A stretch of 64,000 nucleotides of DNA, taken from Marsupella aquatica (taxonomy: Eukaryota > Plantae > Marchantiophyta). The DNA lies in assembly GCA_973895155.1 (NCBI GenBank), contig OZ316894.1, positions 14,007,580 through 14,071,579 on the forward strand. The letters are read 5' to 3'. A model generated the notes under the pieces. That model did not search any database and was not told the origin of the DNA. It saw only the letters and a list, made by a program, of their open reading frames with translations. Below are positions 5,256 to 57,300 of the stretch, in pieces (position 1 is the first letter of the stretch; every line of letters starts with the position of its first letter). Both the position numbers and the translations under genes were made by a program.

Positions 5256-8200
5256 TCATGAAGCCTCCTCGTGAAGGGATACATTGAGGTCAATATTGGT
5301 GTTTATGTCTACATCCCTAGCACCACCTCCAAGGTGCATGACACGAGCAGGAAGTGGTGGAGTGAACTGATTTGCTGTCCTACGTCGCCGCCTACCGTCC
5401 TTAAATTCCTTGCCTAACCTACTCAGATGCTGCCTGATAGATTCCCGAACCACTTTGCGCTTGGATGGTAGTTTACATGGTGTTGTGCCATCCTCCTCCT
5501 GCCATTCAAGAAAGTTGCTAAGTTACCGCTCTTCAATTATTTGGTTTTTCATACAGGATAGAACAGAAATTGGAACAAACAAAAAAATATAGAACTTACC
5601 ATATTAGTAATTATTTGAGACGCAGCTGCTTGTTCTCTTGTTTGTGTTGTCCTCAAAGCCATAGTCCTCCTTCCTCTCTTCCCGCCGTGGTAAATGTCCA
5701 CAACACCTAGACGTCGCTTGGATGTAAGACCCATAGGCCTGATAAAAGCATCCATAGGACCTATATTGTCTTTCACTGAGAGGTGTTTAGTTTGTTCTTG
5801 GCTCTTCACTTTGTTCAAAGTAAGTTGTGTTGCCAGGAATACTTGCTCTATTAGACGGGCATCCCCTTCCACAATGAGCAAAATCTCGTCAAACATCTGT
5901 TGCACAGATTGTCTGAGGGACCGCTCTGGGTTCTTTTTAGGCAGAACAGAAACATGAAGGCTAGATTCCATTGTTTCACAAACCGCATGAGGCTCGACTT
6001 GGCCTTCTACTTCTACATGTTCAGGTGGTGTCAGGATGTTCTCATCCGCATTCAAATGTGAGATGCCACCCATGAGGCTACCAAACCTGGTACCTAGTTT
6101 TTGAACCAAGACAACACCTTGACAACCTCTCACTAGCAATGCCTTCAATTGGTGCTTGCACATGTTCCCTTCATCAGCCCACTTACAACAGCATGAAGGA
6201 AAGTTTGAATATATATTGTGCACAATATACTCTCTCCCATGAGGTTTTAAAATTTTCACAATTGCCTGATTGGGCAATGTTGGATCAGGAAAACAGACCT
6301 GATGGTCTTTCATTCGATGCTCTGCCTTGTGGAGACTATTCAAGACTATTTCCTCTTTCTTGTAGTTGATGACTCTTCCCCTTGCTTTGCACCAAATTTT
6401 GTACCAAAAGAATGGAAGCATCACTTGAAAAAGTGCATTCACAATCCGATCAAGGCGACGTGCTCCAATGGCCCCTATTACTCTCCTTATCATCTTTTTC
6501 AAAGTGCAATGCCAAGCTTCAATTGCACCATTTGTATTCTGGTTGGCACGGGGCATTGATCAAACAGCCCTCATCCACTTTGCTGGAATATAAGACATGC
6601 CACAACATTTAGTACCAGAGATCCAGGCGGAGTTATGAAGTATTCCACAACTACAAAGACACAGGATATTATGCAATATAGAACAGCTACAAAGGCACAC
6701 AAACTTGTGCAGTAAAGAACAACTACAAAAACATTGCAAAAATAAAATACATGGCAAGATATAAATACAATACAAAAACCTTAGACCAAATGGACATGTT
6801 GACAACAAAGAATTTACTAAAATGGCCAGGCATACCCCAAATAGCAAACCACATACCTGTTCTGTACATCCAAGTGTCCTCAAAATACTGCAGAAATAGC
6901 TTTTCAAAGTTGTATTTAATTTTGAAGGCATGCCACAAGGCTTGCATGTCTTCCTCAGTCTCAGCATACATTAAATCTCCAAGATCATCATTCATGTTTA
7001 GGAGCTTGGCTCTATTGGGAACCTTCTTGATCAGATTCTCCTTCCAAGCCCTGTATGGAAGTACCTGTGAGTGAAACGGGTAGAACAGTAACTGAAAGAC
7101 TCTATAAGTGATGATGATAACTAAACATGAGAATGGTGGTATGTGGTTTCAAACATACCTTCTGACATGCCAACTATAGAAGTATATTGGGATGTTAGGA
7201 AACACTGCTTGTAAGGCACTAACTTTAGCCTGAGCGCAGTCGATGATGAAACAACTTGGACTCCAATCAGGTTTGGTCAACAAGGCTCTATCTTTCACAG
7301 CTTGTAAAAACGACCCAATATGTTCTGCTGACTCTGATTGTTGTATACACCACGCTATGGGTAGTCCCATTTGGTGTTCACCAAATGCAACAAGAGTAAA
7401 GAAAGGAAACTGCCATCATAACAAATGTAATTAAGGTTACATGCTAGAACAGTAATGTCAGTCAATACAGAAATAAACCAAAAATCAATCTATTCATTAA
7501 AAGTGAATTATTATTCAATTTATGAACATTTGGGCAATAGAAAGTGTACATTTGGCCTTCAAAAAGTGTACAATTGGGCAAGAAATTAAGTTGATGGCCA
7601 TCAAATATACCACCATGTTCATCCTTTGTAAATGAACTAGGATGAGACTCCTTATAGTCAAGATCATTTTTGCCCCCTCAAGTTTACAATTGATCATTTA
7701 GGTGTAGAGTATTGTACCTTAGTGTACCTTTTGGGTTTAAAAAGTGTACATTTAGAGACCAAAAAGTGAATCTTTAGAGGCCTAAAAGTGAACAAAATAA
7801 AATACACTTTTAATGAATAGTGTGATAAAACAGTAATGTCATTCAACACAGAAATCAACCAGAACGGTAATTCAAACACACGATAACATCACAAAAATGA
7901 ATAAAACATAATGTAGGAAAGGGACCAAGAGAACTGACCCCATATTTGTTTATTGCAAATGTGGAGTCCAGAGCCAAGACCGACCCATGAGACAACTTTG
8001 TCATTTGAGCAAGCTGCCAAGGTGATTGGAGTCCAAGCATGAACTCCTGCTCTGGAGGTCCCTCCAAGTACTCATGGGAAAGAAAAACTCTTTCAAGGTA
8101 AAGGCATTTCCATTTCCGCATTGAGGCTTGGTCATTGTCATCCCATAACCACAACTCTTTGTCAATTTTCCTCTTCAGGTTTCGCAGGTCCTGTTTTGAC

Positions 8201-9125
8201 AAAAGGTCGTCTCTACCGTCAAAGCTTAGTGTGACTTCCATGTCAGTGACATTATGGCCATGATCATCACCATCCCTCTCAAATTGTGACTGGCAGTGTA
8301 GGTCATATATGTCAAGGACAGACCACTTTGCCCTCAACAAGTCTTCTAGGTGTTTTTGCAACTCGTTGGTCAGCCATGGAGCAACACTACACTTTGGCCC
8401 CCATGTTGGCGGCCCCATTTCATGCTCCCAAGAACCATGCACTATGTCGCCTCTGAGGTTGCAATGGATTCTGCAACCAGAATAGTAATAACCACACACA
8501 GTTTCAGTGATGTTTGATGACAGAACAGTAACAACATCACATAGTTTCAGTGAAGTTTGATGCCAGAACACACACTATATCACAAATAACTTACTGTGAT
8601 GTGAAGAGTACATGGTGGCAGAACAATAAGGAAAAATCAAACTGGAATGCAAGAATAGAGTCATAGAAGTTCATTCTGAGTCAAAAGGTAGTTTGTACCT
8701 ATTACTATAGGTGATTTGACCAGCGCCAGGGATCATCTTGAATCTCTTTGCAATGAAGTGGCATTGACAATTCCTTTTTGCGTGATTGTTGAAGTTCTTT
8801 TTGCATAGACGTGGCCTGCTCCCAATTCCTGAATTTGGATGTGTTCCTTGGAGAGGAGGAACACATAGATTGACGTTGTCTTCTTGCGGGCCATAAGAAC
8901 ACCAAATATCTTATACTCTACCCAATCTGTGTTCTCAGAATCTGATTTCTTTGAAGTCCTAATGTAAAAAGATGTCTCAAATTTAGGATCTCTTTTGCCC
9001 TCCCCATCCCTAAAGTCTGTCAGGCGTTCCCAAGGAATGACAGCTTGATTAAGAGTCCAAACAAGTGACAATGCGGAGAACTTCCCAAGAGGTGGGTCCT
9101 GAATCACACCCCTTGTCATGTCCAT
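5256..9125 (-). pseudogene. MULE-type DDE transposase with SWIM zinc finger (plant At1g60560/At4g13970-like family), multi-exon, frameshifted
   Basis: Exonic ORF pieces: QDPPLGKFSALSLVW..IPWERLTDF; WCSYGPQED (other frame); DDLLSKQDLRN..FMLGLQSPWQLAQM..LALDSTF; LPIAW..PDWSPSCFIIDCAQ..WHVRR; NTNGAIEAWHCTLK..RRLD; SWIM CCCKW....MCKH. Frameshift near 8.9 kb; start and exon limits approximate. Confidence 0.8.
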
Positions 9126-16579: not shown

Positions 16580-18943
16580 CTACAACGAAAAAGTAGGATT
16601 CGGTATCATGGACCGCCTCCAAGCCCAGTACTGAGCTCTAATAACATCCATCTCCTCCAGGCGTGTGCATACGAGTCTTGCAAGTTCACCAGGTGATGAC
16701 CACGAACCAAGAACATTGTCTAGGGCACTACAATCAATTTGAGAGGGTTCCAAGCCAAAACCCAAGAGATCTAGGAGGAGATTCAGCGCATGGACACTAC
16801 CCTTGTCATCCGCAATCTGTTGCAAACAGAAATTGAGGACATCTACCCGGGCTGCAAGCACTTCTTTCTTGTCTTGAAAAAGTCCTCTCAAATATCTCCA
16901 AGGGCTTTCATTTGATGGGGCAGGTCCAATGGCCTTCAAGCAATAGGTCACTTCGGATTCCAACATATGTTTCAGCCCTCCACGTGAAGGATCTCTTGTT
17001 ATGACAAAATATCTCTGCAATTTAAACCAAAAAGGTTAAATCAAATGCTTGAGGGATCCCAGACACTAGCGAACAACTCTACCTCAACTAGATGCTGACA
17101 GCCCCTGTAAGATGTCAGTCATGCTAATTCGACAAGGGACCTGACCGTAATACATTCTAGAGGTCAATTTTCATAGAAGATCACACCAACAAACTTCATT
17201 GTATGGCTGAACCGTAGCGTCTCAATGAGGTAACAGAATTGCTCCATAAGTACGTTATCATAGCATTTCCATTTCTAACAGGCACAACTTCTACTGTTAC
17301 CACCTTCTCATGTCCATGATGCATAATTCTAAACTTGACTGCCGCATGTCAGGGGCCGGTGAAGGGTTCTACAATAGTATGCCTTTCCCTTGGATCTGTG
17401 ACTTAGAAACTACAGAAACACTAGTTATGAGTAAAATTCAATTCAAGCATTGCATGTTTGAAGTTATGGCATCCAAAAGGATCAGATTACGCAATCCATG
17501 AAAGAGGCAATTCAAAAGATGAGGTACACGGCATCGCTCCAACGACACACCTGATTCCAGGCTGAATTATTTAAAGGGTCGACCTCAATAAGTTGGGTAC
17601 AGTAATTCAGCTCCCCTTCCCAACCTCCCAAGGATAACAGAACCCACTGCAAAATGAGCAGGTAAGGCAAACGAATCCATGCTTTGTGAGTGTATGTATC
17701 GAGGGGGAAATTGAAATCACAATTTCCATGTTTGTTTCCTTCAGCTACAAAAGGCTCCAGTGTGTTCTGTGCTGAGAACGTTGCTACTCCGCTTCCCATT
17801 TCTTAGGAAAACAGTGACAGTAATTTGAAAAAACAAACTAGTCCATTGTCATTAAAGAACCACCAGTTCAGTGATCCTCGATACGGCAGGCCTCTTAACA
17901 ATAGCATCGTCAAGACTGTTGCCATTGATTTGAGACTAGCGTCTGGACAAAACAGGGTCAGATCAAACTGCATCAAAGAGAAGATTCGATGTCAGAAGTT
18001 TTTGCTTCACCTGTCGATGTGACCATGCATGATAGTTCTTAGCATCATCTTTCAGAACCACTTCTGTGAAGAGTAATTCATCCGATACCGCTATAAAACC
18101 TCGCCTCTGTGCAACCCATCGCCTGTGCTGCCTACAGCATACACATGGTCTGTAAGCTTCACATCCTTTGAAGGATAGATTTTTGGCCTTACAAGCCCCA
18201 CGTTGAGCATATATGGTGAACGGTCAAATGAAGGCATTCAAATTATTGAAACTACAGCATAAAACCAAGATCAACAGCACATCAAGCTCATGTCTGGTGC
18301 ACCAAAGCCAGCAAAAAGTCAAGGCCACATGACACAGCGCGCTATACCAGAACTGATAGTTTTTGTAGTTTAAATCAGCAATCTTTTTCAAAAATGCCAA
18401 CTCCTCCTCTACGTCCACGTCGAGTGCCTCAAGAATAAGTCTCCTGAAATGCCAGACCTAGACAAATTGCACAACTTTAAAATGTTATCATTTTCAGACC
18501 ACTATTACGTCTATGAAAAGACGAGAATCCACCCTCAACGCTACAAGTAGAAAGAAAAGTAAGCTGACTTGGGGAAAACATATTGGTGAAAATTGGAATT
18601 GAACAAAGAACGCACAACAGAGTTCGCCATGACGATGCTTGTTACAAAATACAAACAAGCTCCAGAGCAAGCACACATTCATATGCAAATTCGCAAGCAC
18701 GCACTTCGAGGACAGTACCGTGTAATTTGCAGAATTGAGGCCGATGACTTCGGATGTAAGGTCCAAGGCACGAGGACTACGCTCATCCACTGCGAGTACC
18801 GCTCGAAAGTAATCCATGGAATCTCGAAACTGCTTTGTATAAGAGATGGGCACGACTGGATGCGGCCCATCATCTTGTGGAAGGGGCATAACATCGCTCC
18901 ACTCGGGCCTTTCGCTGAAGGCCAACCATTCGCCTTTCACCAT
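16580..18943 (-). CDS. FTA: Protein farnesyltransferase/geranylgeranyltransferase-I alpha subunit (PLURIPETALA-like), 328 aa
   Basis: Exons 18943-18719, 18457-18348, 18131-18011, 17646-17551 and 17014-16580, all GT-AG, 987 nt in frame. Motifs [76 protein letters not shown] (PPTA repeats). Confidence 0.96.
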
Positions 18944-19079
18944 TTTCGCTAGAAACTAAAACAATCAATCAATTCTCTCAACTCAACCATGCCCTAATCA
19001 CGTGGACGTCGTAGATGATAAGCTCGACAAAATCACGGATGAAGCACACTAAAATTTCAACTGACCATACTTCCTGTCT

Positions 19080-19617
19080 CTACGAAATGTCAGATCGCCG
19101 AGAACGAGGCGCTGCAAATTTCCAGGCATCAGCATCTAGCAATTTCTCCTCTTTGCGCAGAGCGGCAATCACATCTTCCATCAATGCTGCAAGAGTTATG
19201 CCACAAGGGATGAGCAAAATTTTCATAAGCAAGCTCTAAAAATGCAATTTCTTTATGAAAAGAGTAGGGATAAGAGACTTTCACTGGTGCAAAACATCGA
19301 ATGATTGGCCCAGCGACGACGAGAAGAGAAAAAGCCATGACACAAGGACTTCGAAACGAGTGTCGCGAGAACGACGCCCTTCCCACAAATTCCCGCCAAT
19401 ATCTCTACCGGTAAGATCTATGGACACGTTACATACCTTGTTCCGTTTCGGCCTTTTTGTCAGCACAGAAAGTCAACTCGTCTGCCAACTGCGGGAAATG
19501 AGAGTCGTCAAAGACTTGCGATGAAGGAGAAACTTGCTGCCCACCCTGGCTGGCGACACTGCTCGAGGACACTGCGCCAGATGCTCTTGGTGGCGCCCAT
19601 GGGCCCGAGGATTGCAT
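19080..19617 (-). CDS. SAMBA: SAMBA-like plant-specific APC/C regulator, 95 aa, 2 exons
   Basis: Exon1 19617-19437 (accATG context) + GT-AG intron + exon2 19186-19080 gives MQSSGPW..SSSSVASQGG..FDDSHFPQLADELTFCADKKAETEQALMEDVIAALRKEEKLLDADAWKFAAPRSRRSDIS*. This matches the recalled SAMBA pattern DDFHFP...RKDEAM..LK.DLM.EL.KEVKSL.EDSWMFEGPRSRI.LIS. Confidence 0.85.
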
Positions 19618-22352
19618 GGTTCACGTTCCGCCTTCCGCTTTCGCTACTTTCCTCGGGGTTTATGTTACCATACGTATCCTTCTTACTGGGGCTCCAACCA
19701 CGGCGAGAGCATACTTCGTGCACAAAAACGAGGATTGTCGGCGCAAAGCCCCACCGAGGCATGACAGCAGAACTCATCGATCGTCTTAGTCACGCCGTTC
19801 ATTTCAACCCTCTTTGATCGACCCGGTATTAGTACAAAATCATTGCTAAAACCCTTGCCTAACTTACTAAATCCGTATTAGCCAGGATTATTCGTGAAGA
19901 TCAACAGGTTTCATCCTCGCCTCTGTATAGGCACTAACATGCTTTCCTTCATATCCAGGAGGTACAGCAAAATCTAAAGTGAGAATAACACAGGTAGCCC
20001 ATGTTTCATCCCTCAATTGTATATCTTTACTAGAGTGGTATAATTGCCTTCCATAGCAAAGAAAAACTAAACAATGAGAACACAAAAGGTTACTCTATGC
20101 TCTACTGGCAAATATCAAGAAAACCTACTACAACAGTAATCACACCAATTTGCATGAAACAAGCTTCATTTTGAACCATACTTCATTGCATGGTGCACCA
20201 TCCTCCATCACGTACCTTATTTAAGATAATGTTTGATGGCTTCCAATAATCCACTAGACAATCTTGAATTGGGCCTTAGTGTCAATACCTATCACCTATG
20301 TCTTTGCAAATTGCAGCCCAATCACCTTTCTCCCTACAGTTGAACTATGCAATGCTCACAGAACCAACAAAACCCCACCTCTATCTTCCAAGAGGTTGGA
20401 GAACTTTCTCCACTTCAAAACAATAGACTACAACAACAAAACAACCTAACTCTCCACAAGGACTCCCTCCCTATGAGAGTGCAACTTTTACTAATATGCT
20501 TCAAATAGGGTAGTTAAGAAAAACCTGCAAGCAAGCCCCTACTAAAAGCTCACAACTAGAGGCACCAAGGCTTCATAAGGAACCGTCAATATGATGCCAA
20601 GGTGTACTGCCCGGACCAGGGAGAACCTGAAGTCACACCACAAATTCTAGTTGATCTTATATTCCGACAACAAACCAATAGGTCACTGAGAAAACCCTAT
20701 TGGGTACCCCATAAGTTCTGTTATTGTTATACTGCTATTCTTACCATCAATTGGTTTGTAGAATGGAACTAGGGGCTGAGCCCATAGGTCCCAACTACAA
20801 CACGATCTCAAGCATAAGACTTTAGCAGCTCCCCTAGTCAAAAATCACTTCCCAGCTCTAGAAATTAGAGTGTCACTCCCAAGGGTAACTCTGGCCAATA
20901 GAACACCAAAGATGAATAGCAAAACACACCACAGAAAGCATATCAAACATCCAGGAAATCAACCGGCTTGAGCACAAGGTAACATCCAGGTACTCGATCC
21001 CTCTAAAGCTCAGTTCTCATGCCAACTACAAATTAAATTGAATTCATAGCAAAGAATGATGTAAGAAGAAGATACTTTATGTAACATCATAAATTTCCTG
21101 GTACAAATGGAACCTTTGTCCAAGGTCTTCTCCTCACTTCTCTACAACTATCCAACTCTAGGATCATATGCTTGTTGATCTTAGTTTCCACTCCATGCGG
21201 GTAAAGTTTTTGCTAAGCAACAAGGCATCTGTCCCTAACCACAAGAAACTACAATCCTTAAATACTTTTCAGCCACTCCAATCCATTCCAATCCAAACCT
21301 CACCATGGGCTGAGTGCTTCCCTCTCAATGTAGCTCCTAATCAAGCCTCTCACCTCCATTCAAACTTTGGTCCAGTAATTCAAATCAATTGTCCACTACA
21401 ATCTAGTTGATGATTGCTCTTGGTCTACTACTGTACATCAATTGCAAAAATTTCATCCCCCCCATCCTCCAAGGATCAACAGTAGCTCACCTTCTTTCAC
21501 AATCAATCAACATAATTCACCTTGAAGGTTTTCTTCACACAAGAGAAGTCTTCCTCCACCATAACACTCTCCACGTGTTTCAAGAACTTCAAACAAACTC
21601 GTAGCAATTTGCGTAGAAAAATCACTAATAGACCCCCTCCCAACATCTAATTTTTCTCTCATCAATTGGACCTTGGTTGGTGCTCATACTTTGCCAGAAT
21701 GTGCGCCTACTTTCCTTATACCTTCATGCCAAATTTCAGCCAATTTGGTCAAGCAAATGTTACTCTAGAAAATATTTACCGATGTTGATTTTCTCTATTT
21801 ATCATTTCTACGATTTTCAGTTTCGGCGACTTGCGATTGGAACCCCTAACTTCATGTCGATCTTCCTTCCAAAATACCACCTTCTTCCTCATGTGCTTCA
21901 CAATTCCAACTAATCACAATCAACATCTTTCCACCAATCAATGGATCATAGCCACATTCATGTGATTGAATGTGTGGAATAAGACTTGCAACAAAAGATA
22001 AAAAGTTACATACCCCCCTTTATCATCTTATTTTTCTCTCACCAACCAAACTTTAGTTGGTGCTTATACTTTGCCAAAAGGTGCGCCTACTTCCCCCCTA
22101 ACTCCACAAAAAATTTCAGCCAAAACGATCAAGCGAATGTGGCACTAGAAAATATTTGGTGTTGCTGAGTTTTCCTACCATTCATTTTTCATGAATTTCA
22201 ACTTTGACAACTTGTAATTTGACGTTATCTCTCCAATTTGACTTATTTTTCCAGGCCACGATTGCTTCACTTTGTTTCGTGCAACTGATGACCACCTAAT
22301 CCACTATATTTCATCAATCAATTGTTGATGGAGTTTTCATTCCTACCTAATT

Positions 22353-26967: not shown

Positions 26968-27714
26968 ATGCCTGGGAGGTGACGTGTGTTCGTGACGGGA
27001 TTTCGTGACGGTTTTTTCCAGCGTTGAGTGTTGGTGGATTTCCCGGAGTTCCGTCGCATGAAACTTGGAGTTTATGGGCTCAACGGATAGATCAGGGCAA
27101 GGGCTTTCTAACGGTGTGAAGAAATCGCTGAACGAAGCTCGTGGTGCGGAGAGATCTAAGTTTTTATCGTTCTGGATTTTGTTAAGAAAGTCGGCAACAT
27201 TCGTGTTCGACGGTTTTTCGGAGGAGGGACCAGAGTTTGTTTTCTCGACGGTGTGAGCTCTACAGTGAAGAAAGCGTTGCATGTTATAGCTCCATTTGTA
27301 GATCGGGACGAGCTGATCATTTCGGTAGCTGGTTTGTTGCCGAGTGTGTAACGAGTACGTCACAACGAGCAAAAGAAGCGTTCTGACTTTTTAACCGGCT
27401 ATGGAGTCTTCTTTTGCCTGAGCGGGGTTTCTTGTTGTTGCAATCGACTCGGAGGGAGAAGCGTCAAGTGTTTTGACTCAACGGAGAGATTGAGGCAAGA
27501 CAATTGTTTTGAGTCCGGGATTGGCTCTTGATGCGAAGAGGAAGGCTAAGAAAAATCATTTACCTTGTTGGACTTGGTGACGGCACCGAGTGCAATTCAT
27601 CAACATTCGTTGTTGACAAGCATTGGAAAACTAGGCTCGTGGGCTACGTGGCAATGATAACCTTTGAGTTTTTTGAGAAGTTAAGAAAAACATCATTTTT
27701 TCTTGATTTCTCAC

Positions 27715-28692
27715 ATGAGTGACTTGGAGGAGGGTTCTATTGAGTCACCGGAGAGAACAGAGGAGGAAGCAGAAGATCTAGCGGAATTGTGGTCACCGGT
27801 ATTGCGGCGAGTGACAAGAAAAAGGATGGGGATAATCAAGCTTGGAGGTCCCAAGTTTGAGGTTACAAAATACGATGGCCGCATGGACTACTTGTTGTGG
27901 GAGCGACAAGTGAAGGGGGTACTCCGGGCGACCGGGCTTGGGAAATTGCTGAAGGACCAGCCAAATGATGTCGACAATGATGATTGGCAGGACATGCAGG
28001 AGCAAGCTGTGAGCACCGTGATGCTCTATCTTCAACCTAATGTCATCAAGCAATTGGCAGACCATGTCAATTGTGCATCATTGTTTGCCGCGTTGGAGCA
28101 AAAGTACCATCAAAAGGAGCTATCGAATCGGCTCTACACATCTTTGAAGCTTATGAGCTTCAAGATGAAGCAGGGAAGTGCAAAGATTCAGGATCATATC
28201 GATGGTTTCAACGACCTGGTCGTTGATTTGCAAAATCTGGGGGAGGATTTGAGTGATGAGCGGCAGGCTCTTCACTTGCTTAGCTCTTTATCCTTGTCGT
28301 ATCAGTCATTGTCACGAGTGCTGCTTCATCGTGATAGGAAGACTATCACTTACAATGAAGTTGTAAGTGCTCTGTTGACTGATGACTTGCAGCAGAAATT
28401 GACCATGCCCTCTCAGCCATCATCGTCGTCTGGTGCTGCCTTGAATGTGAATCGTGGGAGGTCACAGAAGCATCCAGAGCACCACACGAATGGCAGGGGA
28501 AGAAGTAAATCTATGACAAGATTTGCTTCAAGGGGGAAGTCCCAAGAGAGGAAGTCGGTGGTATGCTGGAAGTGTGGCAAGACTGGCCACATTAAGAGGG
28601 ATTGTAAGGGTAAGGCAGCTGAATCTCCATCAGCCAATGTGGCTAGTGTTGATGGAGAAGTTGATTTACTCAACGATGAGTATGTTTTATGA
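27715..28692 (+). CDS. Copia Gag (UBN2-like domain + CCHC zinc knuckle)
   Basis: KFEVTKYDGRMDYLLWERQVKGVL; LYTSLKLMSFKM...IQDHIDGFNDLVVDL; CWKCGKTGHIKRDC. The TGA stop is in frame with the protease region. Confidence 0.9.
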   Translation: MSDLEEGSIESPERTEEEAEDLAELWSPVLRRVTRKRMGIIKLGGPKFEVTKYDGRMDYLLWERQVKGVLRATGLGKLLKDQPNDVDNDDWQDMQEQAVSTVMLYLQPNVIKQLADHVNCASLFAALEQKYHQKELSNRLYTSLKLMSFKMKQGSAKIQDHIDGFNDLVVDLQNLGEDLSDERQALHLLSSLSLSYQSLSRVLLHRDRKTITYNEVVSALLTDDLQQKLTMPSQPSSSSGAALNVNRGRSQKHPEHHTNGRGRSKSMTRFASRGKSQERKSVVCWKCGKTGHIKRDCKGKAAESPSANVASVDGEVDLLNDEYVL

Positions 28693-33831: not shown

Positions 33832-34500
33832 AGGACCACTTGTCACACCGCATGCACAAACCAGAGACCATTGACCTATAACTTAACACTTTGACTTGAA
33901 CAGAGAGGATATTTACTTAAGATTTTGAATTATGACCAATTTTGGGTCCAGGGTTTAGGGTCAACAGTACATAACTTATCCTATTATGGCTGCACTAAGT
34001 ACAATATCCTAATTTAAGAGGCTAGCAAGCTCACTTAAAAGTCTCCTTTCAAAGACTGGAATTAATGGGCCATGTGATAACCTGGAAAAAGTGATTTATG
34101 CCTAACTTATTTGTCTCATTCACTATCATAGCCTATTTAGGATGTATAAATTACAACCCTGATCACAGTGCTTGATACCAATCCTGTTCAAAAAATGCCT
34201 GTTTTACATGTCACGATTGTTATATGTGATTCAAATGCATTAAATCTTGTTGCAGATCTCCTTTGGTGAATCATAGCCACAAAATTGAGGTGTAGGTGGA
34301 GCTATTGTACGAGGGGATCAGTTTTTAGTGTGGGCTCAACAAACCAAAAAGTATGTCTACTCTGCACATGTGTGTGAACATTTCATTGCAGTAGCAATTG
34401 CCACTCTAGTCTATATGCTACATTGTACTTTTTGTACACTGCACTAAATTGTATTGTCCGTGCACTCTGCTAAATTGTACTATCTGTCTCATGCGTAGGC

Positions 34501-35181
34501 ATGGCACGCCCTAAAATCCGAGCCAAGAAGCGGGGGACAGAGGTGAGCAACACAGGTGTAGTTGGGCCAGATGGTAGTAACTTCTCCGCAAGTCAGATTT
34601 TCCAGAAGGCAGCTCATTGTTGTGCCATTTGTGACGATGGTGGTGGCTTAGCCATATGTGAGGGCCCTTGCATGAGGCATTTCCACCTCAACCCAGAGTC
34701 TGACCTTGCTGCAGAAAACAACTGTCCAGGGGTGGGCCTCCCGTCAGTACACCAGGGAGGCTGGATGTGCACTGATTGTTTGGAGAAGCAGGCTAAGTGT
34801 GCACAGTGTGGGAAGTTGGGGTCTTATGAGGGCTCTGTTGATGCTCCACCACTTGTTAGGAAATGCCCTGACAGATATTGTGTGAGGTTCTTTTGTTTTT
34901 CATGTTTGCCCGATCTTGCCACAGCTTGCCCACTTCATAAGTGCAAGGCATGTGGTCAGCACGATGAAGATTTCTGGGTGGACATAGTCCACTGTGTTAG
35001 GTGTCCCACCATGTGGCACTTTCATTGTTTGAAGGAGCGTCAAGCAGAAGGCTATGCTTGTGACAGACACATCTATCATCACTCTGCACATGGTGTTGAT
35101 CGATGGATCTTCTATTGTCATCGCCATGCCATAGATCCTACTTTGCACACTCCCATGAGAGATCACATTTCTTGGCTTTGA
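34501..35181 (+). CDS. Stand-alone EDM2-type tandem PHD-finger protein (CACTA cargo)
   Basis: CAICDDGG.L.ICEGPCMRHFH...C..C..K..KC..CGKLGS...C...C.RFF...ACPLHKC..C....CVRCPT.WH..CL...IFYC.RH.ID..L.TP.RDHI follows the recalled EDM2 PHD region. N-terminal basic NLS-like RPKIRAKKR; intronless. Confidence 0.85.
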   Translation: MARPKIRAKKRGTEVSNTGVVGPDGSNFSASQIFQKAAHCCAICDDGGGLAICEGPCMRHFHLNPESDLAAENNCPGVGLPSVHQGGWMCTDCLEKQAKCAQCGKLGSYEGSVDAPPLVRKCPDRYCVRFFCFSCLPDLATACPLHKCKACGQHDEDFWVDIVHCVRCPTMWHFHCLKERQAEGYACDRHIYHHSAHGVDRWIFYCHRHAIDPTLHTPMRDHISWL

Positions 35182-35781
35182 ACCTGAATAATATACATGC
35201 ATAGTGCACCTGATGTGGATACCTTGGAGATTGCAGACATTCCAATTTTGAGAAGAAGGACCTCTGTAGGAGAGGATGCTTAGGCAACAAGTACCCTAAG
35301 TTCATTACTTGTTCCTGGGTACATGCCTTCAAAAACTGCCCTTAAAAGCCTTCTAGGAACTTTTTTAACTCTGCAATCATTTTGATCACGACTTACATGA
35401 CACTGCTTAAATTAAATCAGGACTTCTCATTATGAGCATATAAGTTACAAGGCTATTTAATTTGCGAGAATTCCCTTAAAGTGTACCAACATTTTGTATT
35501 CTCATTGAATGTCTGCCCATTTACAACATCTGTATGTGGCATCACAAAACAATTGCACTTGTCACCTTCAATATTGTGAAGGCACATATTCAAACTATGA
35601 GGTGCATGCTTGCAAGTGTCTAGTACGTTTGTCCCAATATTTCTCCCGTTTGGAATCGGAGCAGAGACTCACCAGACGACTGGACTGGACCAAGTTATAA
35701 ACGCAGCATTTTAAGGGCCCTCCGATTATCAGGTGAACGCATTATCTTCCGGTCTGCAGTGATTAGGTGGCCCGTGTGTAC

Positions 35782-36630
35782 ATGGCCTCTAGGAAACGTA
35801 CAAAGGTTGACCACCCGCCTCTGTTGGCTGGAATCAAAGCCATTTTGATTCCTGGCCACTATGGGTTCACCCAAGTGAGTTGGCCAATCGTACAAAAACG
35901 ATTCTCAGAGTTCCATGGGACTGAAGTCAAGGACATCACTCCACAGACTACACATGTTGTTGCGGGGACATGGCTGGATGTGATGAACAAGTGGTCATGG
36001 TCCTTCATTGATTCTGCCATTACCAACCAAGGTCTAAAAGTAGTTGAAGTCTCTTGGCTGACCGATTCTGTTAAACATAGGTGTGTACAGAGTACTGAGC
36101 AATATGAGTTGTGGGAGAGTGAGGAGGCCACTGCAGAGGCTTTGGCTGAAAAGGAAGCCTATGAAGCAGCGGCAGAGAAACCCAACTTTGCTTCTGTCCA
36201 ATATGGACCTGTTGTCAACATAGGACACCATCCTATGCGTGCAGATGCTATATTGAATGAGCATGGCAAGGAGAGAAATACCATTATGAAGGGGTTCAGT
36301 GTGGTATTTGCAGAAGAAGGAATTGGGGAGACTAAGTGCAGACTGTACAAGTCTATAGTTGTTGAGCTAGGTGGGACAGTGGAGGAGAGTCTAACAGAAA
36401 CCTCCACTCATGTTGTAGGTCTGTCATACATGAAAATATGCAGAAAATTCTTTAAGACAACAGTGCGTGATTTTGTCATGAACAACAATCTTTGGGTGCT
36501 TTCCCCTGATTGGCTTCTGGAATCAGCAGCTAGAGGGAAGCGACAAAATGCTTGGGACTTTGATATTTTTGAGGCCTGGCCCTCCAAGATTCAGCGGAGA
36601 TGTATGCTTAGCAAAGGTGGGAGAGAGTGA
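35782..36630 (+). CDS. Tandem two-BRCT-domain protein (Pol lambda BRCT-like) (CACTA cargo)
   Basis: Two repeats with GT.V..ITPQTTHVV / GGTVEESLTETSTHVV and VSWLTDS / SPDWLLES, typical BRCT signatures; N-terminal basic RKRTK. Confidence 0.8.
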   Translation: MASRKRTKVDHPPLLAGIKAILIPGHYGFTQVSWPIVQKRFSEFHGTEVKDITPQTTHVVAGTWLDVMNKWSWSFIDSAITNQGLKVVEVSWLTDSVKHRCVQSTEQYELWESEEATAEALAEKEAYEAAAEKPNFASVQYGPVVNIGHHPMRADAILNEHGKERNTIMKGFSVVFAEEGIGETKCRLYKSIVVELGGTVEESLTETSTHVVGLSYMKICRKFFKTTVRDFVMNNNLWVLSPDWLLESAARGKRQNAWDFDIFEAWPSKIQRRCMLSKGGRE

Positions 36631-37340: not shown

Positions 37341-37666
37341 TAAGATGAGGACATCTCACACCGGTCTCGCACCTGGCACCTGTGTCTATGACTATACATG
37401 ATTGGACTCTGATATGGTCATGGATGTACGTGCAGAGGCAGTACATGTGAGGACAGCGGAGGAGTTGACACCCTCAAACATTTAGGAATTTTGTCTCATT
37501 CACTTGAGAATAGGTACATGACTCAGGCACCTATATTTTTTGTTTTTTTGTTTTTTTGGAACGTTACGTATTTTGGCAAGTACAGTCGGGGGTGAAATCC
37601 TTAACAGGAAGTGTATTTTTCACTTGCATAATAAAATGACAGGGTGCTGAGTGCGTGTGTATAGTG

Positions 37667-40600
37667 ATGGCTCCAAGGTTGCCTCTTCACAACCCATTTA
37701 GGATTAGGCATCATGATTCTAAATTGTGGATGCGTGAACAAGCCCGGGCCGCCCAAGGTAGGAGTAGGAGGATGAGATGCCCATGCACACAATGCCAAGG
37801 ATTCAAGTCGTTGAGTTTGAACACTGTGCACCTTCACCTGCTGCGGCATGAAAGGCACCCTCGGTGGAGGGTTTGGAATGTACCAGCAGAAGAAGACTCC
37901 TCTGATGAAGAGTGGAGAGCTGACTTTGTGGATTCTAATACAGCTAGGCGTAGAGCCTACGTAGAGCAGGACATAGACTGTGTAGAGGATGGTCCTGGGG
38001 TCCAACATGAGAACGTGGATGACCAAGATGGAGATGCAGAGGCAGTCACTGAGGACGGTGGGATGGATGTCCCAAGAATGGTTCAAGAGATTTTTGAAGA
38101 CCTTGATGCTTTTTACGACACAGTGGAATCAGAAGAGGACAATGAACCGCAGCCACACATTGGCGACGGCCAAGCTCAACCTGACTTTGACATTGGGGAA
38201 GGTGCAGCAGAGAGGGAGTGGGTGTTTGGGGGCCCAAAACACATCAAAGAAGCTTGCATTCCTATCTACGAGGGGTCGAACTGCTCCAAGCTGGGTTTTG
38301 TCGTGTTGTTGTTGAACATCTGTGGCAATCACAATGTTCCCAATATATTTGTGACAGAGTTGTTGACCTTCCTGCGCCGAAATGTGTTACCAGATGGTAA
38401 TTCAATTCCAAAAAATATGTACGAGGCTAGGAAATTGATGTCTAACCTTGGGCTGAACTATGTGTCTATTGACGCATGCCCTGATGGGTGTGTTCTCTTT
38501 CGCAAAGAGCATGCAGATAAATTGACATGCCCTCATTGTGGTAAGGACAGGTACAAGAATGTAGGGAAATGTACACACCCTGCCAAGGTTCTTCGTCATT
38601 TTCCTCTCATTCCTAGACTACAACGTCTGTTTAGATGCCCTGCCATTTCCAAGCTGATGACATGGACTCCTGATAACAAGAGCAGTGATGGCCTGCAGTG
38701 TCACATTGGAGATTCCAACCATTGGAAATTTGTTGATGAGAGGTGGCCACAGTTTGCTACAAAGAAGCGGAACTTTCGATTTGGTCTATCACTGGATGGA
38801 ATAAACCCATTTGGAGACAAAAACAACCGTTATTCATGTTGGCCGGTTACGCTGCTAAATTACAACCTTCCCCCATGGATGACTACAAAGAGGTTTTTTG
38901 TCATGATGGTGCTGTTAATCCCTGGACCAGCTTCTGTGACCGAGCAATTCATAGATATCATGTTGGCTCCAGCAGTGGAAGAGTGGAAGACTTTGTGGAT
39001 AGAAGGGGTGTTAACCCATGATGTTCTGAAGGGGCTTCTTCGACCCAGCCCCTTTAGACTGCATGCAATTTGTTTGCTGGATATAGCAGATTACCCAGGC
39101 CATGGCATCATATCTGGACGAGTGACAAAGGGCTATGTGGGGTGCACACCATGTGGGAAAAATGTGACAAGTGAGTGGTCGCATGCCCTGCACAGTATGA
39201 AATTTCAGGGGCATAGAAGGTATCTGCCTGTTGATCATCCTTACAGGCACACACGGTCTCAAATTGCACACTTCAACAACAAAACAGAGCTTCGTGGCCC
39301 ACCACAGAGGGTCACCAGAGAGCAAGTCCTGAGGTGGGCAGCCAGGAAGGCTGATTGGGACAAGAGAAGTGCCACTGATCGAGAACCTGAGGATCCAGTG
39401 GTGAAACACGGTGTGAAAAGACAGACCTTGATGGACTTGGAGTTGGAGTACTGGAGGGTAATGTACTTAGCCTCCAGCCCCTGTATGATTGCAATTTTAG
39501 ATTGGAGCAATGGTGGATTGATGTTGGTTACAATCCTCCTATGTGGTTAATTAGTGTTTCTGTTGTTGAATTCTTTGCTTTGTGGAGTGCAGGAATTCGA
39601 GCCCAGCAAACACAATGTGGACGTCATGCACATTGAGAAAAATATTTGTGAGAGCTTGCTGAAGTTCTTGTCGGGTGAGAAAGATACAGGAGCAGTTCGA
39701 GCTGATATGCAACAGAAGGGGATTCGCCCTCACCTTTGGTTGAAGCCCCATGCAAGCAATCCCAATGTACTTCTCAAGTTCCAAGCTCCCTATGTGTGCA
39801 CACAGGATGAATGGAAGACATTCTTGTATAGATTGAGCTGTCTGAAAGTGCCCTCTGGCTATGCTGGTGCCTTCAAGAAGCATATTACAAAGAATAAACT
39901 TGGCAGTATGAAAACACATGACTACCATGTGTTGATGCAGCACATTCTGCCCCTATGCCTCAGAGGTCTCATGCAGAAACCAGTCCGTAATGTCATTCTT
40001 CGACTGTGCAATGTATTTCGCCGTATATGTGTGAAAGTGTGGGATCCCCAAGGATTGGAGCAGTTGAAGCAGGATGCTGCTTATGTCCTCTGTGACTTGG
40101 AGATATACTTCCCCCCTGCTTTCTTTGATGTTATGACTCATCTCCTAATCCATGTGGTAGAAGAGCTAGGGCAGTATGGGCCAGTCAGTACCAGAGGATG
40201 TACCCTATGGAGCGATACATGAAGTTGTTGAAAGGTCATGTGAGAACATACTACAGGCCAGAGGCTTCCATGGCATTGGGGTACATTAAGGATGAGACGT
40301 TGGGATTCCTAACAGAGTACATGGCTGGGTCTGGTGAAGCTATGACAAGAGTTTGGAAATCTGGTGAAGATGATGGAGTGAGTGGCGAGGTTGTTGAAGG
40401 TGTGGGACGTGCTGTTCAGCTGCCTGTTGCGATTCGAGACAAGGCTCATTCATATGTGCTGGCAAACACAGAGCCTATGCAACCATGGTGGAGGTGAGTG
40501 ATTGAATTGACTTGCCTTTGTTGTGATGCTTCTTGTCTGTTCCAAGGGTGATCTTAGGTTGTCATGTGTTGTTTAGACCTAACTATGCCTGTACCTCATA

Positions 40601-45544: not shown

Positions 45545-48496
45545 GCAAGTAATTGATGGTGAACTTCAAGTCATGTCGGGAGAGATAGTGATTTTGAAGG
45601 GGCGCAGACAGAAGAATTTGTATGTGTTGCAGGGCAATACAGTATGTGGAGAGGCCAATGTGACCAAGTCTCACGAGGAAATGACTCAACTGTGACATTC
45701 ACGGCTAGGCCACATGAGTGAGAAGGGTTTGGCTATCTTGTAGAAGAATGGGCTCATTTCTGATTTGCAATCTTGTAAATTGGATTTCTGTGAGCATTGC
45801 ATTTTTGGAAAGCAGCATTGTCGTGCTTTCGGTGTTGGAACTCATCATTCCAAAGCGGTTCTTGAGTACATATGTGACGTGTGGGGACCATCCCCGACTC
45901 CCTCACATTCTGGAAAATTGTACTATGTATCCTTTATTGACGATTACTCAAGATTTGTATGGATTTATTTCATGACGCATAAATCTGATGTCTTGTCCAT
46001 TTTTACAAAGTGGAAGACCCAAGTAGAGAATCAGACAGGAAACACGGTTAAGTGTTTGGATACAAGGGTGAAGAGTCTAAGGTCAGACAACGGCGGGGAG
46101 TACACTTCAATAAAATTTGAAGAGTACTGTGCAGAACAGGGGATAACTCGTCATCTCACCACAGTTTATACTCCACAGCAGAATGGTGTAGCTGAGAGGC
46201 TCAATCGAACACTATTGGAGCGGTCACGGAGTATGCTGAGCCAATCAGGTTTACCACAGGAATTTTGGGCAGAAGCTGTCAATACTGCAGTTTATTTGGT
46301 AAATCTTTCTCCTTCTAGTGCAATCAATTTTAAAATGCCGTTTGAAATGCGTTATAAGCGGCAAGCAGACTATCATGGCTTGGTAGTTTTTGGAAGTGAT
46401 GCATATGCTCTCACACCAAAGCAGAATAGGACCATGTTGGATCCTACGTCCAAGAAATGTATTTTTCTTGGGTATCAGAGTGGTGTGAAGGCCTACAGGT
46501 TATGGGATCCTATTGCTTGTAAGCTCATTGTTAGTAGGGATGTTTCTTTCAATGAATCCAGATTATTGAAGGAGGGGGAGAATACTCAAGTCTCCCGTAC
46601 TGACAAAGGAAAATCTCCTATCCTGGATCTCGTTGAGGGGGAGATTGATCATGAAGTGCATGATCGGAGAGAAGGAGGTGCTCCAAGCATGGAGCTGGTT
46701 CTTGTGCTAGAGGAACAAAAGGAGTTTATTGATGCTGATGAGCAGCAAATGGATGTTGCTGAGCTTCAAATTGTACCAGTAGACGCAATTCAACCGGAGT
46801 CATCGTCTAGAAGAACATTTGGTCGTACTGTACGCGCTCCTCCTAGGTATGGACAGTGGGTTGATTCATCTCAACTGCAAGAGGATGATTTTGCAGCTGA
46901 TGATGAGGGTGATGCGTTAATTTTGGAAGAAGGGGAACCTTCTTCATTTCATGAGGCCAGTGCTTCAAAGGAGAAGCAGAAGTGGACTGCAGCAATGCAA
47001 ACGGAGATGCAGTCACTAAAGGACAACAAAACTTGGGAGCTTGTTAAGCTGCCTAAGGGTCAGCAAGTGGTGGACAACAAGTGGATTTACAAGCTGAAGA
47101 ATAATTCCACAGGAGGTGGATCAAAGGTCTACAAGGCTAGGTTGGTAGCAAAGGGATTCACACAAGAGAAAGGTGTGGATTACAATGAGGTCTTCTCACC
47201 AGTTGCTAAGTACTCTACAATACGACTATTGTGTGTACTTGTTGTAATGTTTGGTCTGTTGCTAGATTAGATGGATGTTGTCACAGCTTTCCTCTATGGC
47301 ACATTGGAAGAGGTGATCTTCATGAGACAACTGCTAGGTTTTGTGTAGAGAGGACAGGAGGAATTGGTTTGCAGATTGCTGAAATCCTTGTATGGGTTGA
47401 AGCAGTCATCAAGACAGTGGAACAAGCGGTTTGACGATTGGATTCGATCACAAGGTTTTCACAAAAGTGTATTTGACCCTTGTGTGTATTTGAAACCGGT
47501 GAAGAATATTGTCTTTGGGTTCATTGTTTTAGTACTTTATGTGGATGACATGCTTATTGCGGCCAATGATAGGTCTGAGATTGTTAAGCTTAAGGCACTG
47601 CTCAATGCAGAGTTTAAGATGAAGGACCTAGGGCCAACTAAGAGGATTTTGGGTATGGAGATCACTAGGGACTTGGAGGCTAGTAAGCTATGGTTGACAC
47701 ACAGCAGTTATGCGAGGAAGGTAATTGCTAGGTTCAACATGGGGGATAGCAAGCCAGTAAGTACCCTTTGGCTACACACTTCAAATTATCATCAGCTTTC
47801 TGTCCCACAGATGCGATAGAGAAGGGGCTGATGTCAAAGGTTCCTTATGATAAGGCAGTGGGAAGTCTCATGTATTTGATGACTTGCACTAGACCTGATC
47901 TTGCCATGGCTATGGGCAAGGTGAGTAGGTACATGTCAAATCCAAGGAAGGTACATTGGGAAGCAGTGAAGTGGATTATCAGGTACTTGAAGGGTACCGT
48001 GGATCATGGTCTTTTATTTGATGCGAATGCAAAGAATGCTAGATCATTGATTGGCTATGTAGATTCTGACTATGGACAAGATTTGGACCGAAGGAGATCA
48101 ACAACAGGATACGTGTTCACACTTGGCGGTGGATGCATAAGTTGGAGGTCTACTTTGCAGAAGTGTATTGCTCAGTCTACTACAGAAGCGGAGTATGTTG
48201 CAGCTGCGGAAGCAGCAAAGGAAGCAATTTGGTTGGATAGACTTATCACTGAAATGGGATTGCCATAGGGGAATGTGAAGCTCCATTGTGATAGTCAAAG
48301 TGCGCTCCACCTTGCTGTGAACCAGGTGATGGACAGCAGAGTGAAGCACATTGACGTCAGGGACCATTTTATCAGGCAGGGTGTGTCTGATAATTTGTTT
48401 GAGCTAGTCAAGATTGATGGTAAACTCAACCCGGCTGACGCATTTACCAAAGTGATTCCTTTGGAGAGTTTCTCTAGACATCGTGACGTATTGTAG
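45545..48496 (+). pseudogene. Copia pol: GAG-pre-integrase, integrase, RT, RNase H
   Basis: H.RLGHMS; CEHCIFGKQH; FIDDYSR; LRSDNGGEY; TPQQNGVAER; YKARLVAKGF; SLYGLKQ; LYVDDML; YVDSDYGQD; STTEAEY; KHIDVR. Several TAG/TGA stops and a frameshift near 47768. Confidence 0.95.
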
Positions 48497-54346: not shown

Positions 54347-57300
54347 TTATGTGGTCAAGTTATCGGGCAACTGGGTATCGGTACCCATAATCTTGCCTCC
54401 AACATCAGGAAAATATTCATGGCCATCTAGATGTGTGACTTGGCCTTCTAAAGTGACATGATATGGATATAGCAGAAGATGGCCTCTCAGATCTGTGACT
54501 TCATCTGCTACATATTGTTCCCAGTACTTTTCTGCTTCTTCATTAACCTTGTGCACACACTCCAAGCTTGAAGGGTCCTCGAATGATTGATCAAGAAATG
54601 CCAAATGCTCCGCCCACAATCCCATCCGGTATCCATATATCTGGGTAACACAATAGCACATTTTAGGATCAGCGAGAACCACAAAAGTCGAGCTAACTTC
54701 ATGCCACTTTGTTCACAACTTATTAGGCAAGACAGCAATATCCTGTCCTGTTGTTAAGCTATTATATAGGCATTGCGGGGATAATTACTTTACGCTGGAA
54801 ACAGCCAAACACATCAACCGAGCAAACCTGGCCCCGTGGATGCTTCAATGATTGTGCCCAAGAGTGGTGAGGTTGATATGCTCCCATTGCTATCTCAGTA
54901 TCACGTGACCCGTCCATGGATCGCTGATTGATGTTTGCCGATCCTAGAATAACATATTCATCATCGACGATCATACCTTTTGAATGAATGTAAATCATAA
55001 AGCGTCTTGTCTTATGCACTATACCCTGCAAAATCAGGGGTATCCATTGGCTTGAGTATGTGTTCAGCCACCAGTATGTCAAGGAAACACACATCTATTT
55101 ACCCCCCTTTTGCTAGGGCAGAGATGCAATATCAAAAATCACAATCCATTTAAAGTGCGTAAATTCTCCAGCATACCTTTTCAAGAGACAGGACGTACAA
55201 AGCAGGAAGTAACAAAAAGGGGAAAAAGGACACAGATGAGTAGAGAAAGCTTGTAGTAGCGCGATCACCTGCTTGGAATTTGGATCGGGTGGCTTTGCCG
55301 GAGATGGATCTGAGTCACTTTTTGTCTCACGATTGGCCAGGCAGTAAAAGTTAAGATAGTCCCTCGGATGGCTGCCTTCCAAACCTTTGTCACGTATGGC
55401 ATCAGCAATTATTGTGTACATCATCTGAACGGTCTGGGCCTGTACATGGAAGACACGAAACAAAAAAATTGGAAACCTAGACAGTGATATGGGTCAACTT
55501 CTGAGCTCCGCTTCATAATGTTCATCCAACAATAAAATGCTATCCATGTACTTCTATCGATGATAAAGTTTTATCATCGACTTCAGCCAAAACCTCTTGA
55601 ACAACAGTTGCACTTGGCTTTAGGCTCCTCCAAACAGATTCTTTCTTCAGAAGAACCATCCAAGACACGTCCATCGCATCCACGCAAGAGAAAGGATCGA
55701 ATAGGCCCTCACCTGAAAGTACAGAATCTCTTGCACAGACGAGCTGTCGGGAGGACCTTCTGGCCACATAGGGATTAGAATGTATGCAGCAAATCTTTCA
55801 CCAGCTTTGATCTTCTTTGCGATCTTGAGAGCAATCTCCATGGGTATCAAATGATCTGCACCTGCAAGAGCCATGGCCAGCACACAGTACGAATTGTGCT
55901 GATATGAGACACCTCCATACAAAGGACACAGTAAAACAGAAAGAAAAAGGAATAAAGGTGCATCCTTCACCAGAACAAAGATTCCAAAAAGACCGTTCGA
56001 ATCACACTTCAAATTTAAACAATTCACAACAGAAGCAGGAAAGAAAAAGTGGGGGCAGTAATGACACTGGAAAATTCTGTGGATGATGTTAGAGAAAAGT
56101 ATCCAATATAAAAGTTTGAAAATTACCAGCATTTTTATAGTCAGGCCATCCATATGATGAGCCAAGAAAGTACTGGTTTTCAATGTAAATGAAATGCTGG
56201 GCTCCTCGAATAGCTTTGATGTAGGCTGTCTGTATACTCACATCAACAGCAATGTTTTTCCTCCAAACTAGATTCTGAAAGAAGTCAAACCAAATTTATT
56301 TGTCAGTCTTTGTACGAAGCTACTCTCCAGCAAAGTACTTACAGACAATCCATTCACATCAGATCCATTTACAATACTAGAATGAACGACTTAGCGATCA
56401 ACTTAGAAGTTCCCCAAATAACATTTGAAATACTGAAGTAGTAAGTAATAAAGGAGCCATCTATAGAGCTGGAACCTCGAGGAGCGCTCTTTTGTTCAGA
56501 AATACAAATGGTGCTGCGAGAACATCAGTGGTTTCTTCAGGCATTCCGAGAGCTCCGGATGGCAACCGGAATACTAAAAATATTTAATTACAGAGAACGG
56601 ATGACAATTCATTGAGAGCATGTACCTGCTTCTCTGCATCCTGCACTGTTTTTGGAAAACCCTTTGCAGACCCAGAGTCAATCGAACGAAAAACCTGAAA
56701 GCACCATGAAATATTTACTTTGAGTGACATCACAGTCATAAGCGGCACTTTATTATCATGCAACTTTAGTATAACACAGATCACTTTAGGTCCTCCAACT
56801 CTCCCTCTGCAGCCCCTCGATCTCTAAGATATATGACACAAAAGCACATCCATTTGCTAAGAGGTGCCATAAACCTCGCCCGTTATTTGAGAAGAAGTTT
56901 GCCTTAAATATCACTCCAAGCAACATCTAACTCCGGTTTAGTGACCTTGTGTATCGAGATTTCAATAGTAGGAGGTTATCCCTACACCACCTTACTTTTA
57001 ACTCTGTGGTCTCACTCTTAACCATTATGTACAAGGACGAACATTTGCGTCCCGACCATTCCGCATCTTAAAGCCACTTGTCTTGGAAAATAAGAAAATA
57101 CCTGTACATGCCACGTTTCCGGATCGTCATCTTCTGTGACCATAAGATGGCCATCACCCTGGGGTGGGGAATCCTTTGAAGGCCCAAGAATCCAGGAGAT
57201 TCGTCCGATTTCTATCAGCTCGTCATCATGCCATCTCGTTGCTTTCTTCCACCGTTGTTCGAAGTTTGTGAGAACATCATATGCAGCAGGGCCATCGATC

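Follow-up and report, generated by a model that had tools for sequence, protein, structure and literature searches.

SAMBA and FTA as a probable bicistronic gene pair in the liverwort Marsupella aquatica, with a likely counterpart in green algae

Why does the gene for SAMBA, a small protein that regulates the APC/C (anaphase-promoting complex/cyclosome), lie immediately before the gene for FTA, the alpha subunit of the prenyltransferases FTase and GGTase-I? The question is raised by a 64,000-nucleotide (nt) stretch of the Marsupella aquatica genome (contig OZ316894.1 of assembly GCA_973895155.1; hereafter the window, with positions counted from its first letter). Both genes occupy the same minus strand, head to tail, and 136 nt separate the SAMBA TAG from the FTA ATG. 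The two open reading frames (ORFs) measure 288 nt for SAMBA and 987 nt for FTA, each with its own start and stop codon, and the small one comes first. With its shared strand, small first ORF (ORF1) and short spacer, this layout fits that of a green-lineage nuclear bicistron of the CDC26-TTM3 type. Conservation indicates that SAMBA and FTA probably share one bicistronic mRNA, driven by a single promoter upstream of SAMBA, and that green algae and land plants likely inherited the arrangement from their common ancestor. The initial annotation of this DNA had proposed such an mRNA; its two-exon ORF of 95 amino acids (aa), its 136-nt gap and its FTA start at 18943 all hold. The locus comprises the following features.

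19437..19617, minus strand: SAMBA exon 1, 181 nt (60 codons plus 1 nt); ATG at 19617 in the context ACC-ATG-C; donor AAG/GTATGT
19187..19436, minus strand: SAMBA intron 1, 250 nt, GT-AG, phase 1; junction as in the Calypogeia fissa model
19080..19186, minus strand: SAMBA exon 2, 107 nt, after a GCAG acceptor; conserved C-terminal motif; TAG at 19082-19080
18944..19079, minus strand: inter-ORF spacer, 136 nt; ATGs at 19068 and 18990; no AATAAA-like hexamer and no unusual RNA fold
18949..19070, minus strand: predicted spacer intron (sequence-based); donor 19070; acceptor 18949 (122 nt) or 18956 (115 nt)
18719..18943, minus strand: FTA exon 1; ATG at 18943 in the strong context AAA-ATG-G
18348..18457, minus strand: FTA exon 2; PPTA match; GT-AG boundaries
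18011..18131, minus strand: FTA exon 3; PPTA match, 36 bits
17551..17646, minus strand: FTA exon 4; PPTA match
16580..17014, minus strand: FTA exon 5; TAG stop; 86% identity with C. fissa FTA (whole protein 328 aa)
18600..19800, no strand: CpG-rich block; observed/expected 1.0-1.1 against a window median of 0.42

The spliced 95-aa product matches a SAMBA profile at 60.7 bits (E 1.6e-17) over residues 12-94, a span that includes both conserved regions. The profile represents 41 angiosperm proteins called SAMBA by their sources, taken from 120 of 303 matches listed. On this profile, the two SAMBA exons are the only ones of 2733 six-frame window ORFs to reach E < 0.01, and exon 2 by itself scores 39.2 bits. 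The search is not fully independent, because the retrieving alignment included the Calypogeia sequence; the protein names, however, are those given by the sources. A search with exon 1 returned a 90-aa Calypogeia fissa protein as its sole match, and the independent C. fissa annotation has an identical exon junction, with 90-92% identity to the window SAMBA. The last residues of exon 2 are the same as those of Marchantia OAE18772.1, and residues L, D, W, R and S are invariant across 18 aligned SAMBA sequences. Of 23 matches, two (P0034 and P0038) were dropped as low-complexity, and four more, being fragments or fused models, were kept out of alignment A1. Chara, ferns, gymnosperms and a lycophyte have homologues; the 120 of 303 matches listed included none recognised as a moss or hornwort SAMBA, a sample from which absence cannot be read. 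These profile and alignment matches identify the 95-aa ORF as SAMBA, an identity on which the initial annotation had made its proposal depend. Its role as an APC/C regulator is taken from the family match. In Arabidopsis and maize, SAMBA is reported to bind the APC/C (APC3) and to control cyclin turnover.

In two sequencing runs of a closely related organism, 2 of 288 SAMBA coding sites differ, compared with 10 of 250 intron sites (p 0.016). Exon 1 shows no difference in either run, and intron 1 carries 9 substitutions and one indel in the second haplotype. As a separate observation, window positions 18880-19700 are covered in this organism (runs X3 and X4) by two haplotypes at roughly equal depth, several percent apart in introns. 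Such a pattern is expected from an allopolyploid or a mixed sample, and the pair is likewise annotated twice in C. fissa.

FTA consists of five exons encoding 328 aa, and every intron is GT-AG. Matches to PF01239 (PPTA) occur in four of the five exons when these are scanned singly, one of them over the curated cut-off. The protein is 70% identical to a Marchantia protein named FTase/GGTase-I alpha, and in the FTA tree it adjoins Calypogeia and clusters with liverwort FTAs at 100/99. On these similarities we assign it as the FTase/GGTase-I alpha subunit. The FTA models of C. fissa, Marchantia polymorpha, M. paleacea and Riccia fluitans begin at the same Met as the window FTA.

Is the neighbourhood peculiar to Marsupella? 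C. fissa contains two SAMBA/FTA copies, CAM6083553.1/CAM6083552.1 and CAM6115835.1/CAM6115837.1, and the members of each pair share the same longest contig. In M. polymorpha ssp. ruderalis, the 276-aa OAE18772.1 (AXG93_2396s1230) ends in SAMBA exon 2, and the next protein is the FTA OAE18773.1 (s1240). The Riccia sorocarpa FTA, KAL3700051.1, opens with SAMBA exon 1, which scores 19.9 bits on a liverwort-free profile; the other 23 of the 24 FTA-cluster proteins reach at most 4.1 bits and 1000 shuffles at most 8.6. This fusion places SAMBA upstream of FTA on the same strand in R. sorocarpa. Read from accession order in Calypogeia and Marchantia and from the fused model in Riccia, the adjacency for which the initial annotation had proposed a search is conserved in four liverwort genera. 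The sampled genera fall in two liverwort classes, Jungermanniopsida and Marchantiopsida.

Green algae provide a precedent. FTA is reported as ORF2 of exclusively bicistronic Iso-Seq mRNAs in Chromochloris (PMC7896298) and Auxenochlorella (PMC11892635). The 'full' polycistronic sheet for Chromochloris pairs Cz07g19167 (339 nt, 112 aa, no description) with Cz07g19170 (FTA), separated by a 325-nt, out-of-frame spacer, with support from Dunaliella expressed sequence tags (PMC7896298). For Auxenochlorella, UTEX250_A01.01015 (234 nt, 77 aa, no InterPro match) is given as lying 5 nt before A01.01010 (FTA), also out of frame, and the pair is colinear in Chlorella vulgaris. Loci in that study were selected by Iso-Seq as solely on one transcript, and validation confirmed 20 of 21 colinear orthologous loci as bicistronic (PMC11892635).

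The identity of the algal ORF1 can be approached through a 13-nt context in the Kozak table of the Auxenochlorella study, which gives five bases on each side of one internal in-frame Met (PMC11892635). This Met, the sole internal one of the 77-aa ORF, decodes as [N/D/H/Y]-W-M-F-[D/E]. Among 142 SAMBA-family proteins, 141 contain W-[KM]-[FY], 59 contain WMF[DE] and 26 contain [NDHY]WMF[DE]. None of 1838 background Met contexts, taken from FTA proteins and long six-frame ORFs that are not all real proteins, contains WM[FY], and WMF[DE] is expected at a rate of 7e-5. The Auxenochlorella sheet gives 30 in-frame Met contexts, of which, counted by eye, this one alone is SAMBA-like, and TGGNNNTTC occurs once among 221 NNN contexts of the same supplement file (PMC11892635). 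At 77 aa, the ORF is also about as long as Chara SAMBA (78-79 aa). From this signature, the Auxenochlorella ORF1 is very probably SAMBA, and the algal FTA bicistron and the liverwort SAMBA-FTA pair are likely an orthologous locus. The shared mRNA has strong though indirect support: four liverwort genera keep the pair, FTA is reported as ORF2 of bicistrons in two green algae and the ORF1 of one of them bears this signature. No paper among the matches listed ties SAMBA to FTA or names the algal ORF1, a scope that lay mostly outside subscription papers.

Where would a shared transcript begin? The CpG-rich block begins upstream of SAMBA, spans the SAMBA 5' flank, SAMBA, the spacer and FTA exon 1, and fades within FTA. 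A phospholipase D (PLD) gene elsewhere in the window has a comparable block at its own 5' end. The block at 18600-19800 is likely the 5' end of a SAMBA-FTA unit.

The spacer raises the question of how ribosomes could reach FTA. Its predicted intron has a donor that reads GAA/GTATGG at 19070 and a branch-like TTGAT at 18972-18968. Splicing would leave 21 nt (acceptor 18956) or 14 nt (acceptor 18949), with both spacer ATGs lost, just as the initial annotation had described; these positions are confirmed in the sequence, and the intron itself is a prediction. From its splice signals, an intron of 115-122 nt would be removed here. The donor/branch/acceptor layout is also found in 46 of 5000 dinucleotide shuffles and in 16 of 7514 window tiles, under criteria chosen post hoc. 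In one haplotype of the related organism, two bases are changed near the acceptors, both AGs are kept and TTGAT becomes CTGAT; one contig of one run shows a cluster of changes mid-spacer, within the predicted intron. No joints at predicted introns are listed in four sequencing runs, whose contig pieces pass through intron sequence, as DNA would; one of these runs, X1, may be the source of the window itself. No AATAAA-like hexamer lies within 622 nt after the SAMBA stop, which is weak evidence because 79 of 1000 shuffles also have none. Two further candidates were rejected: an internal ribosome entry site or structured spacer (fold z -0.55, no Rfam match), and read-through of the SAMBA stop, which would be in frame with the 18956 acceptor only and is out of frame across the algal spacers.

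The predicted intron may also be recognizable in seed plants. Seed-plant SAMBA isoforms part at a phase-1 junction, 7 nt past a conserved I-S, and this junction is likely SAMBA intron 2. SAMBA proteins of liverworts, a lycophyte and Chara end at or before that point. The predicted spacer donor lies 12 nt past the same Ser, about 5 nt from the point at which the seed-plant isoforms diverge. Hence, the spacer intron may correspond to seed-plant SAMBA intron 2, with the seed-plant tail gained upon loss of the stop.

A working model can be outlined on this basis. The promoter upstream of SAMBA would yield one transcript with both ORFs, and removal of the spacer intron would eliminate both spacer AUGs and leave 14-21 nt between the SAMBA stop and the FTA start. 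The SAMBA AUG (A at -3, C at +4) would engage the majority of scanning ribosomes, which would produce the 95-aa APC/C regulator. FTA would come from a separate translation event, chiefly through ribosomes that bypass the SAMBA start and five internal AUGs and reach the strong FTA AUG by scanning, with reinitiation over the short spacer as a minor route. A pyrimidine occupies -3 at four of these internal AUGs, and the fifth is an AUG-stop; with the 18956 acceptor, all upstream ORFs terminate before the FTA start. Leaky scanning is the mechanism reported as tested in algal bicistrons (PMC11291117). If the mRNA is shared, leaky scanning is slightly favoured as the route to FTA, reinitiation is possible and clearly less so, and an isoform that skips SAMBA exon 2 is an improbable source. 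The benefit of the arrangement would likely be translational, in that a long second ORF would hold the mRNA of a small protein on polysomes, away from nonsense-mediated decay (NMD).

Several observations weigh against this interpretation. We infer the shared liverwort mRNA from conservation, and in Calypogeia and Marchantia the adjacency comes from accession order, with strand evidence from Riccia alone. CAM6115836.1 intervenes between CAM6115835.1 and CAM6115837.1 in C. fissa, and the Riccia fusion shows a gene predictor able to splice SAMBA and FTA ORFs together. The leader before FTA is not depleted of AUGs: its 302 spliced nt, counted from the SAMBA start, contain 6, against 4.6 expected. 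The Auxenochlorella ORF1 is reported to have only 1 internal AUG (PMC11892635); because the liverwort leader, unlike the algal ORF1, is not AUG-depleted, leaky scanning is weakened. If the 18949 acceptor is used, the FTA start is overlapped by two out-of-frame ORFs that come from SAMBA exon 2. The algal ORF1 identity consists of five residues spotted post hoc in Auxenochlorella and is silent on the Chromochloris ORF1, and the window SAMBA has W-K-F at the signature site. Metagenomes were scanned with the FTA alignment, which gave at least 586 pattern matches and 377 relatives, and none of the best 80 of these relatives matched the SAMBA profile (best E 1.1). Three loci were plant-like (L001-L003; the upstream stretch of L002 is just 14 nt), and no chlorophyte was recognised in 19 inspected loci. 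L003, a plant FTA transcript that is spliced and of unplaced lineage, has a 283-nt leader with several AUGs and no SAMBA match, and L001, a seed-plant-like FTA transcript, has a 190-nt leader without SAMBA. The SAMBA-FTA link is therefore not universal.

Could the tight spacing arise without a common message? SAMBA and FTA may be two overlapping monocistronic units, with the SAMBA polyA site inside FTA and the FTA start site in SAMBA intron 1, SAMBA exon 2 or the spacer; their closeness would then be a relic of an old bicistron or of shared regulatory DNA. The 1.2-kb CpG-rich block extends to FTA exon 1 and could hold a second promoter, the five internal AUGs would impede scanning on a shared mRNA, and Arabidopsis is reported to have the two genes unlinked, with SAMBA (AT1G32310) and FTA (At3g59380) on different chromosomes (PMC12392944, PMC13415981). 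We nonetheless consider such units unlikely. The algal FTA loci are given as exclusively bicistronic (PMC7896298, PMC11892635), and the missing hexamer downstream of the SAMBA stop points weakly the same way. Moreover, independent genes need not remain adjacent in both sampled liverwort classes. A further alternative, a chance neighbourhood with no sharing of expression, is highly improbable, given that the pair is adjacent in four liverwort genera, that the other recognised coding DNA of the window is mostly transposon and that a matching bicistron is reported in algae (PMC7896298, PMC11892635).

An explanation closer to the shared mRNA keeps one promoter and derives FTA from an isoform in which SAMBA exon 1 (19437) is joined to 18948 through the 18949 acceptor. 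This FTA would carry a 62-residue N-terminal extension, and the mRNA that retains exon 2 would make SAMBA only. The junction, missing from the initial annotation, is in frame with FTA and free of stops, the R. sorocarpa model is an exon-1/FTA fusion of such a kind, and the length of the FTA N-terminus differs between homologues. However, a frame match occurs by chance one time in three, neither of the two algal spacers (5 and 325 nt) is in frame and the four liverwort FTA models noted above start at the Met of the window protein. The residue at the Riccia junction is Leu, which is incompatible with the G supplied by the phase-1 junction of the window; since a Leu codon cannot begin with G, the Riccia model may be a prediction artefact. 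We therefore regard the exon-skipping explanation as quite doubtful, and the bicistronic mRNA with a separately translated FTA remains the reading that we prefer.

This bicistronic reading places SAMBA-FTA beside CDC26-TTM3, a bicistron of plants and green algae for which experimental evidence is reported (PMC7943633, PMC11291117, PMC11892635). Translation of its second ORF is reported to raise the level of the first protein by keeping the mRNA on polysomes against NMD. Both loci combine a small APC/C protein as ORF1 with an unrelated enzyme as ORF2, retain separate start and stop codons and are, in the case of SAMBA-FTA probably, common to algae and land plants. They differ in that CDC26-TTM3 is kept in flowering plants, whereas SAMBA-FTA is split in Arabidopsis and, in land plants, is known from sequence alone. 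SAMBA is also longer than CDC26 (95 versus 65 aa) and has its own intron in addition to the predicted spacer intron. The Chlamydomonas pair APC15-SNM1A (Cre12.g513245-Cre12.g513254) again joins a small APC/C subunit to an unrelated enzyme, with different genes. Reported medians for algal bicistrons are 183 and 40 nt, against ORFs of 288 and 987 nt and a 136-nt spacer here. As in Chromochloris and Auxenochlorella, FTA is ORF2 behind a small, out-of-frame ORF1 (112 and 77 aa in these algae), though the algal ORF1 is AUG-poor and the liverwort SAMBA is not. In the algal papers, ORF1 has no description or InterPro match and the locus is given for chlorophytes only (PMC7896298, PMC11892635).

The individual proteins belong to the same families as angiosperm SAMBA (AT1G32310, maize, tomato) and FTA/PLURIPETALA (At3g59380). 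Liverwort SAMBA intron 1 sits just ahead of the Met at the head of exon 2, a position also reported for maize (bioRxiv 2021.04.22.440954). Angiosperm SAMBA differs in having a third exon and a variable tail (three exons in maize, bioRxiv 2021.04.22.440954), whereas the liverwort ORF ends in exon 2.

Does the arrangement couple APC/C control to protein prenylation? The initial annotation had drawn this conclusion from the shared mRNA. Liverwort conservation and algal precedent support the mRNA; the coupling finds no support, in view of the different chromosomes in Arabidopsis and of CDC26 and APC15, which are reported with unrelated second ORFs. Because CDC26, APC15 and SAMBA have three unrelated partners, FTA is more likely to act as a long carrier ORF than as a functional partner of SAMBA.

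Taken as a whole, the comparisons moderately favour a broader history. SAMBA would be ORF1 of the green-algal FTA bicistron, a chlorophyte/land-plant bicistron about a billion years old that still works in liverworts and was split in flowering plants, where SAMBA would have gained its third exon by stop loss and read-through of the former spacer intron. CDC26, APC15 and SAMBA would then all be first ORFs on unrelated long genes. Three small green-plant APC/C proteins in this position would indicate a general strategy by which tiny APC/C components are expressed. In the literature consulted, CDC26-TTM3 is the only bicistron described as common to algae and land plants, and a second, also headed by a small APC/C protein, would suggest a rule. 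An orphan algal ORF would receive a name, the range of SAMBA would widen to chlorophytes, and SAMBA-FTA would offer a natural before-and-after of bicistron splitting. In practice, both genes may be affected when the SAMBA or FTA locus of a liverwort receives an insertion or a promoter edit, and gene models at the locus are error-prone, as the mis-joined model of M. polymorpha ssp. ruderalis and the fused one of Riccia illustrate.

The predicted structure of SAMBA is a single long helix (residues 38-79), for which Foldseek gave no match. By language-model features, the Calypogeia (P0001) and Chara (P0030) proteins retrieve an ANAPC16 cluster at 0.83, under the 0.9 line, with the family name on 17% of its members; Pfam, PDB-sequence and Foldseek searches for a likeness to APC16 gave no match. 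SAMBA may be a remote APC16 counterpart, which we offer as a lead only. When prokaryote genomes were scanned for SAMBA, one of 11 matches passed, a 13-residue chance match, and scans of viral contigs gave 0 of 26 and 0 of 3.

The remainder of the window is gene-sparse. Of 69 long ORFs scanned, Pfam matches fall on Copia and CACTA elements, on a PHD/BRCT pair next to the CACTA element and on the PLD gene. The latter (54350-60144, minus strand; C2, two PLDc and PLD_C domains) served as the CpG control. Long open frames at 5552-6559 and 7858-8574, both on the minus strand, encode 336 and 239 aa without a Pfam match. On the plus strand, a Copia gag (27685-28689) and integrase/RT (45744-47816) lie on either side of a CACTA-like element with Transposase_21 (37640-39547), DUF4218 and DUF4216, upstream of which ORFs match a PHD finger (34474-35178) and BRCT (35767-36627). 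The whole segment, 27685-47816, looks like a CACTA element with chromatin-reader and BRCT domains nested inside a Copia element.

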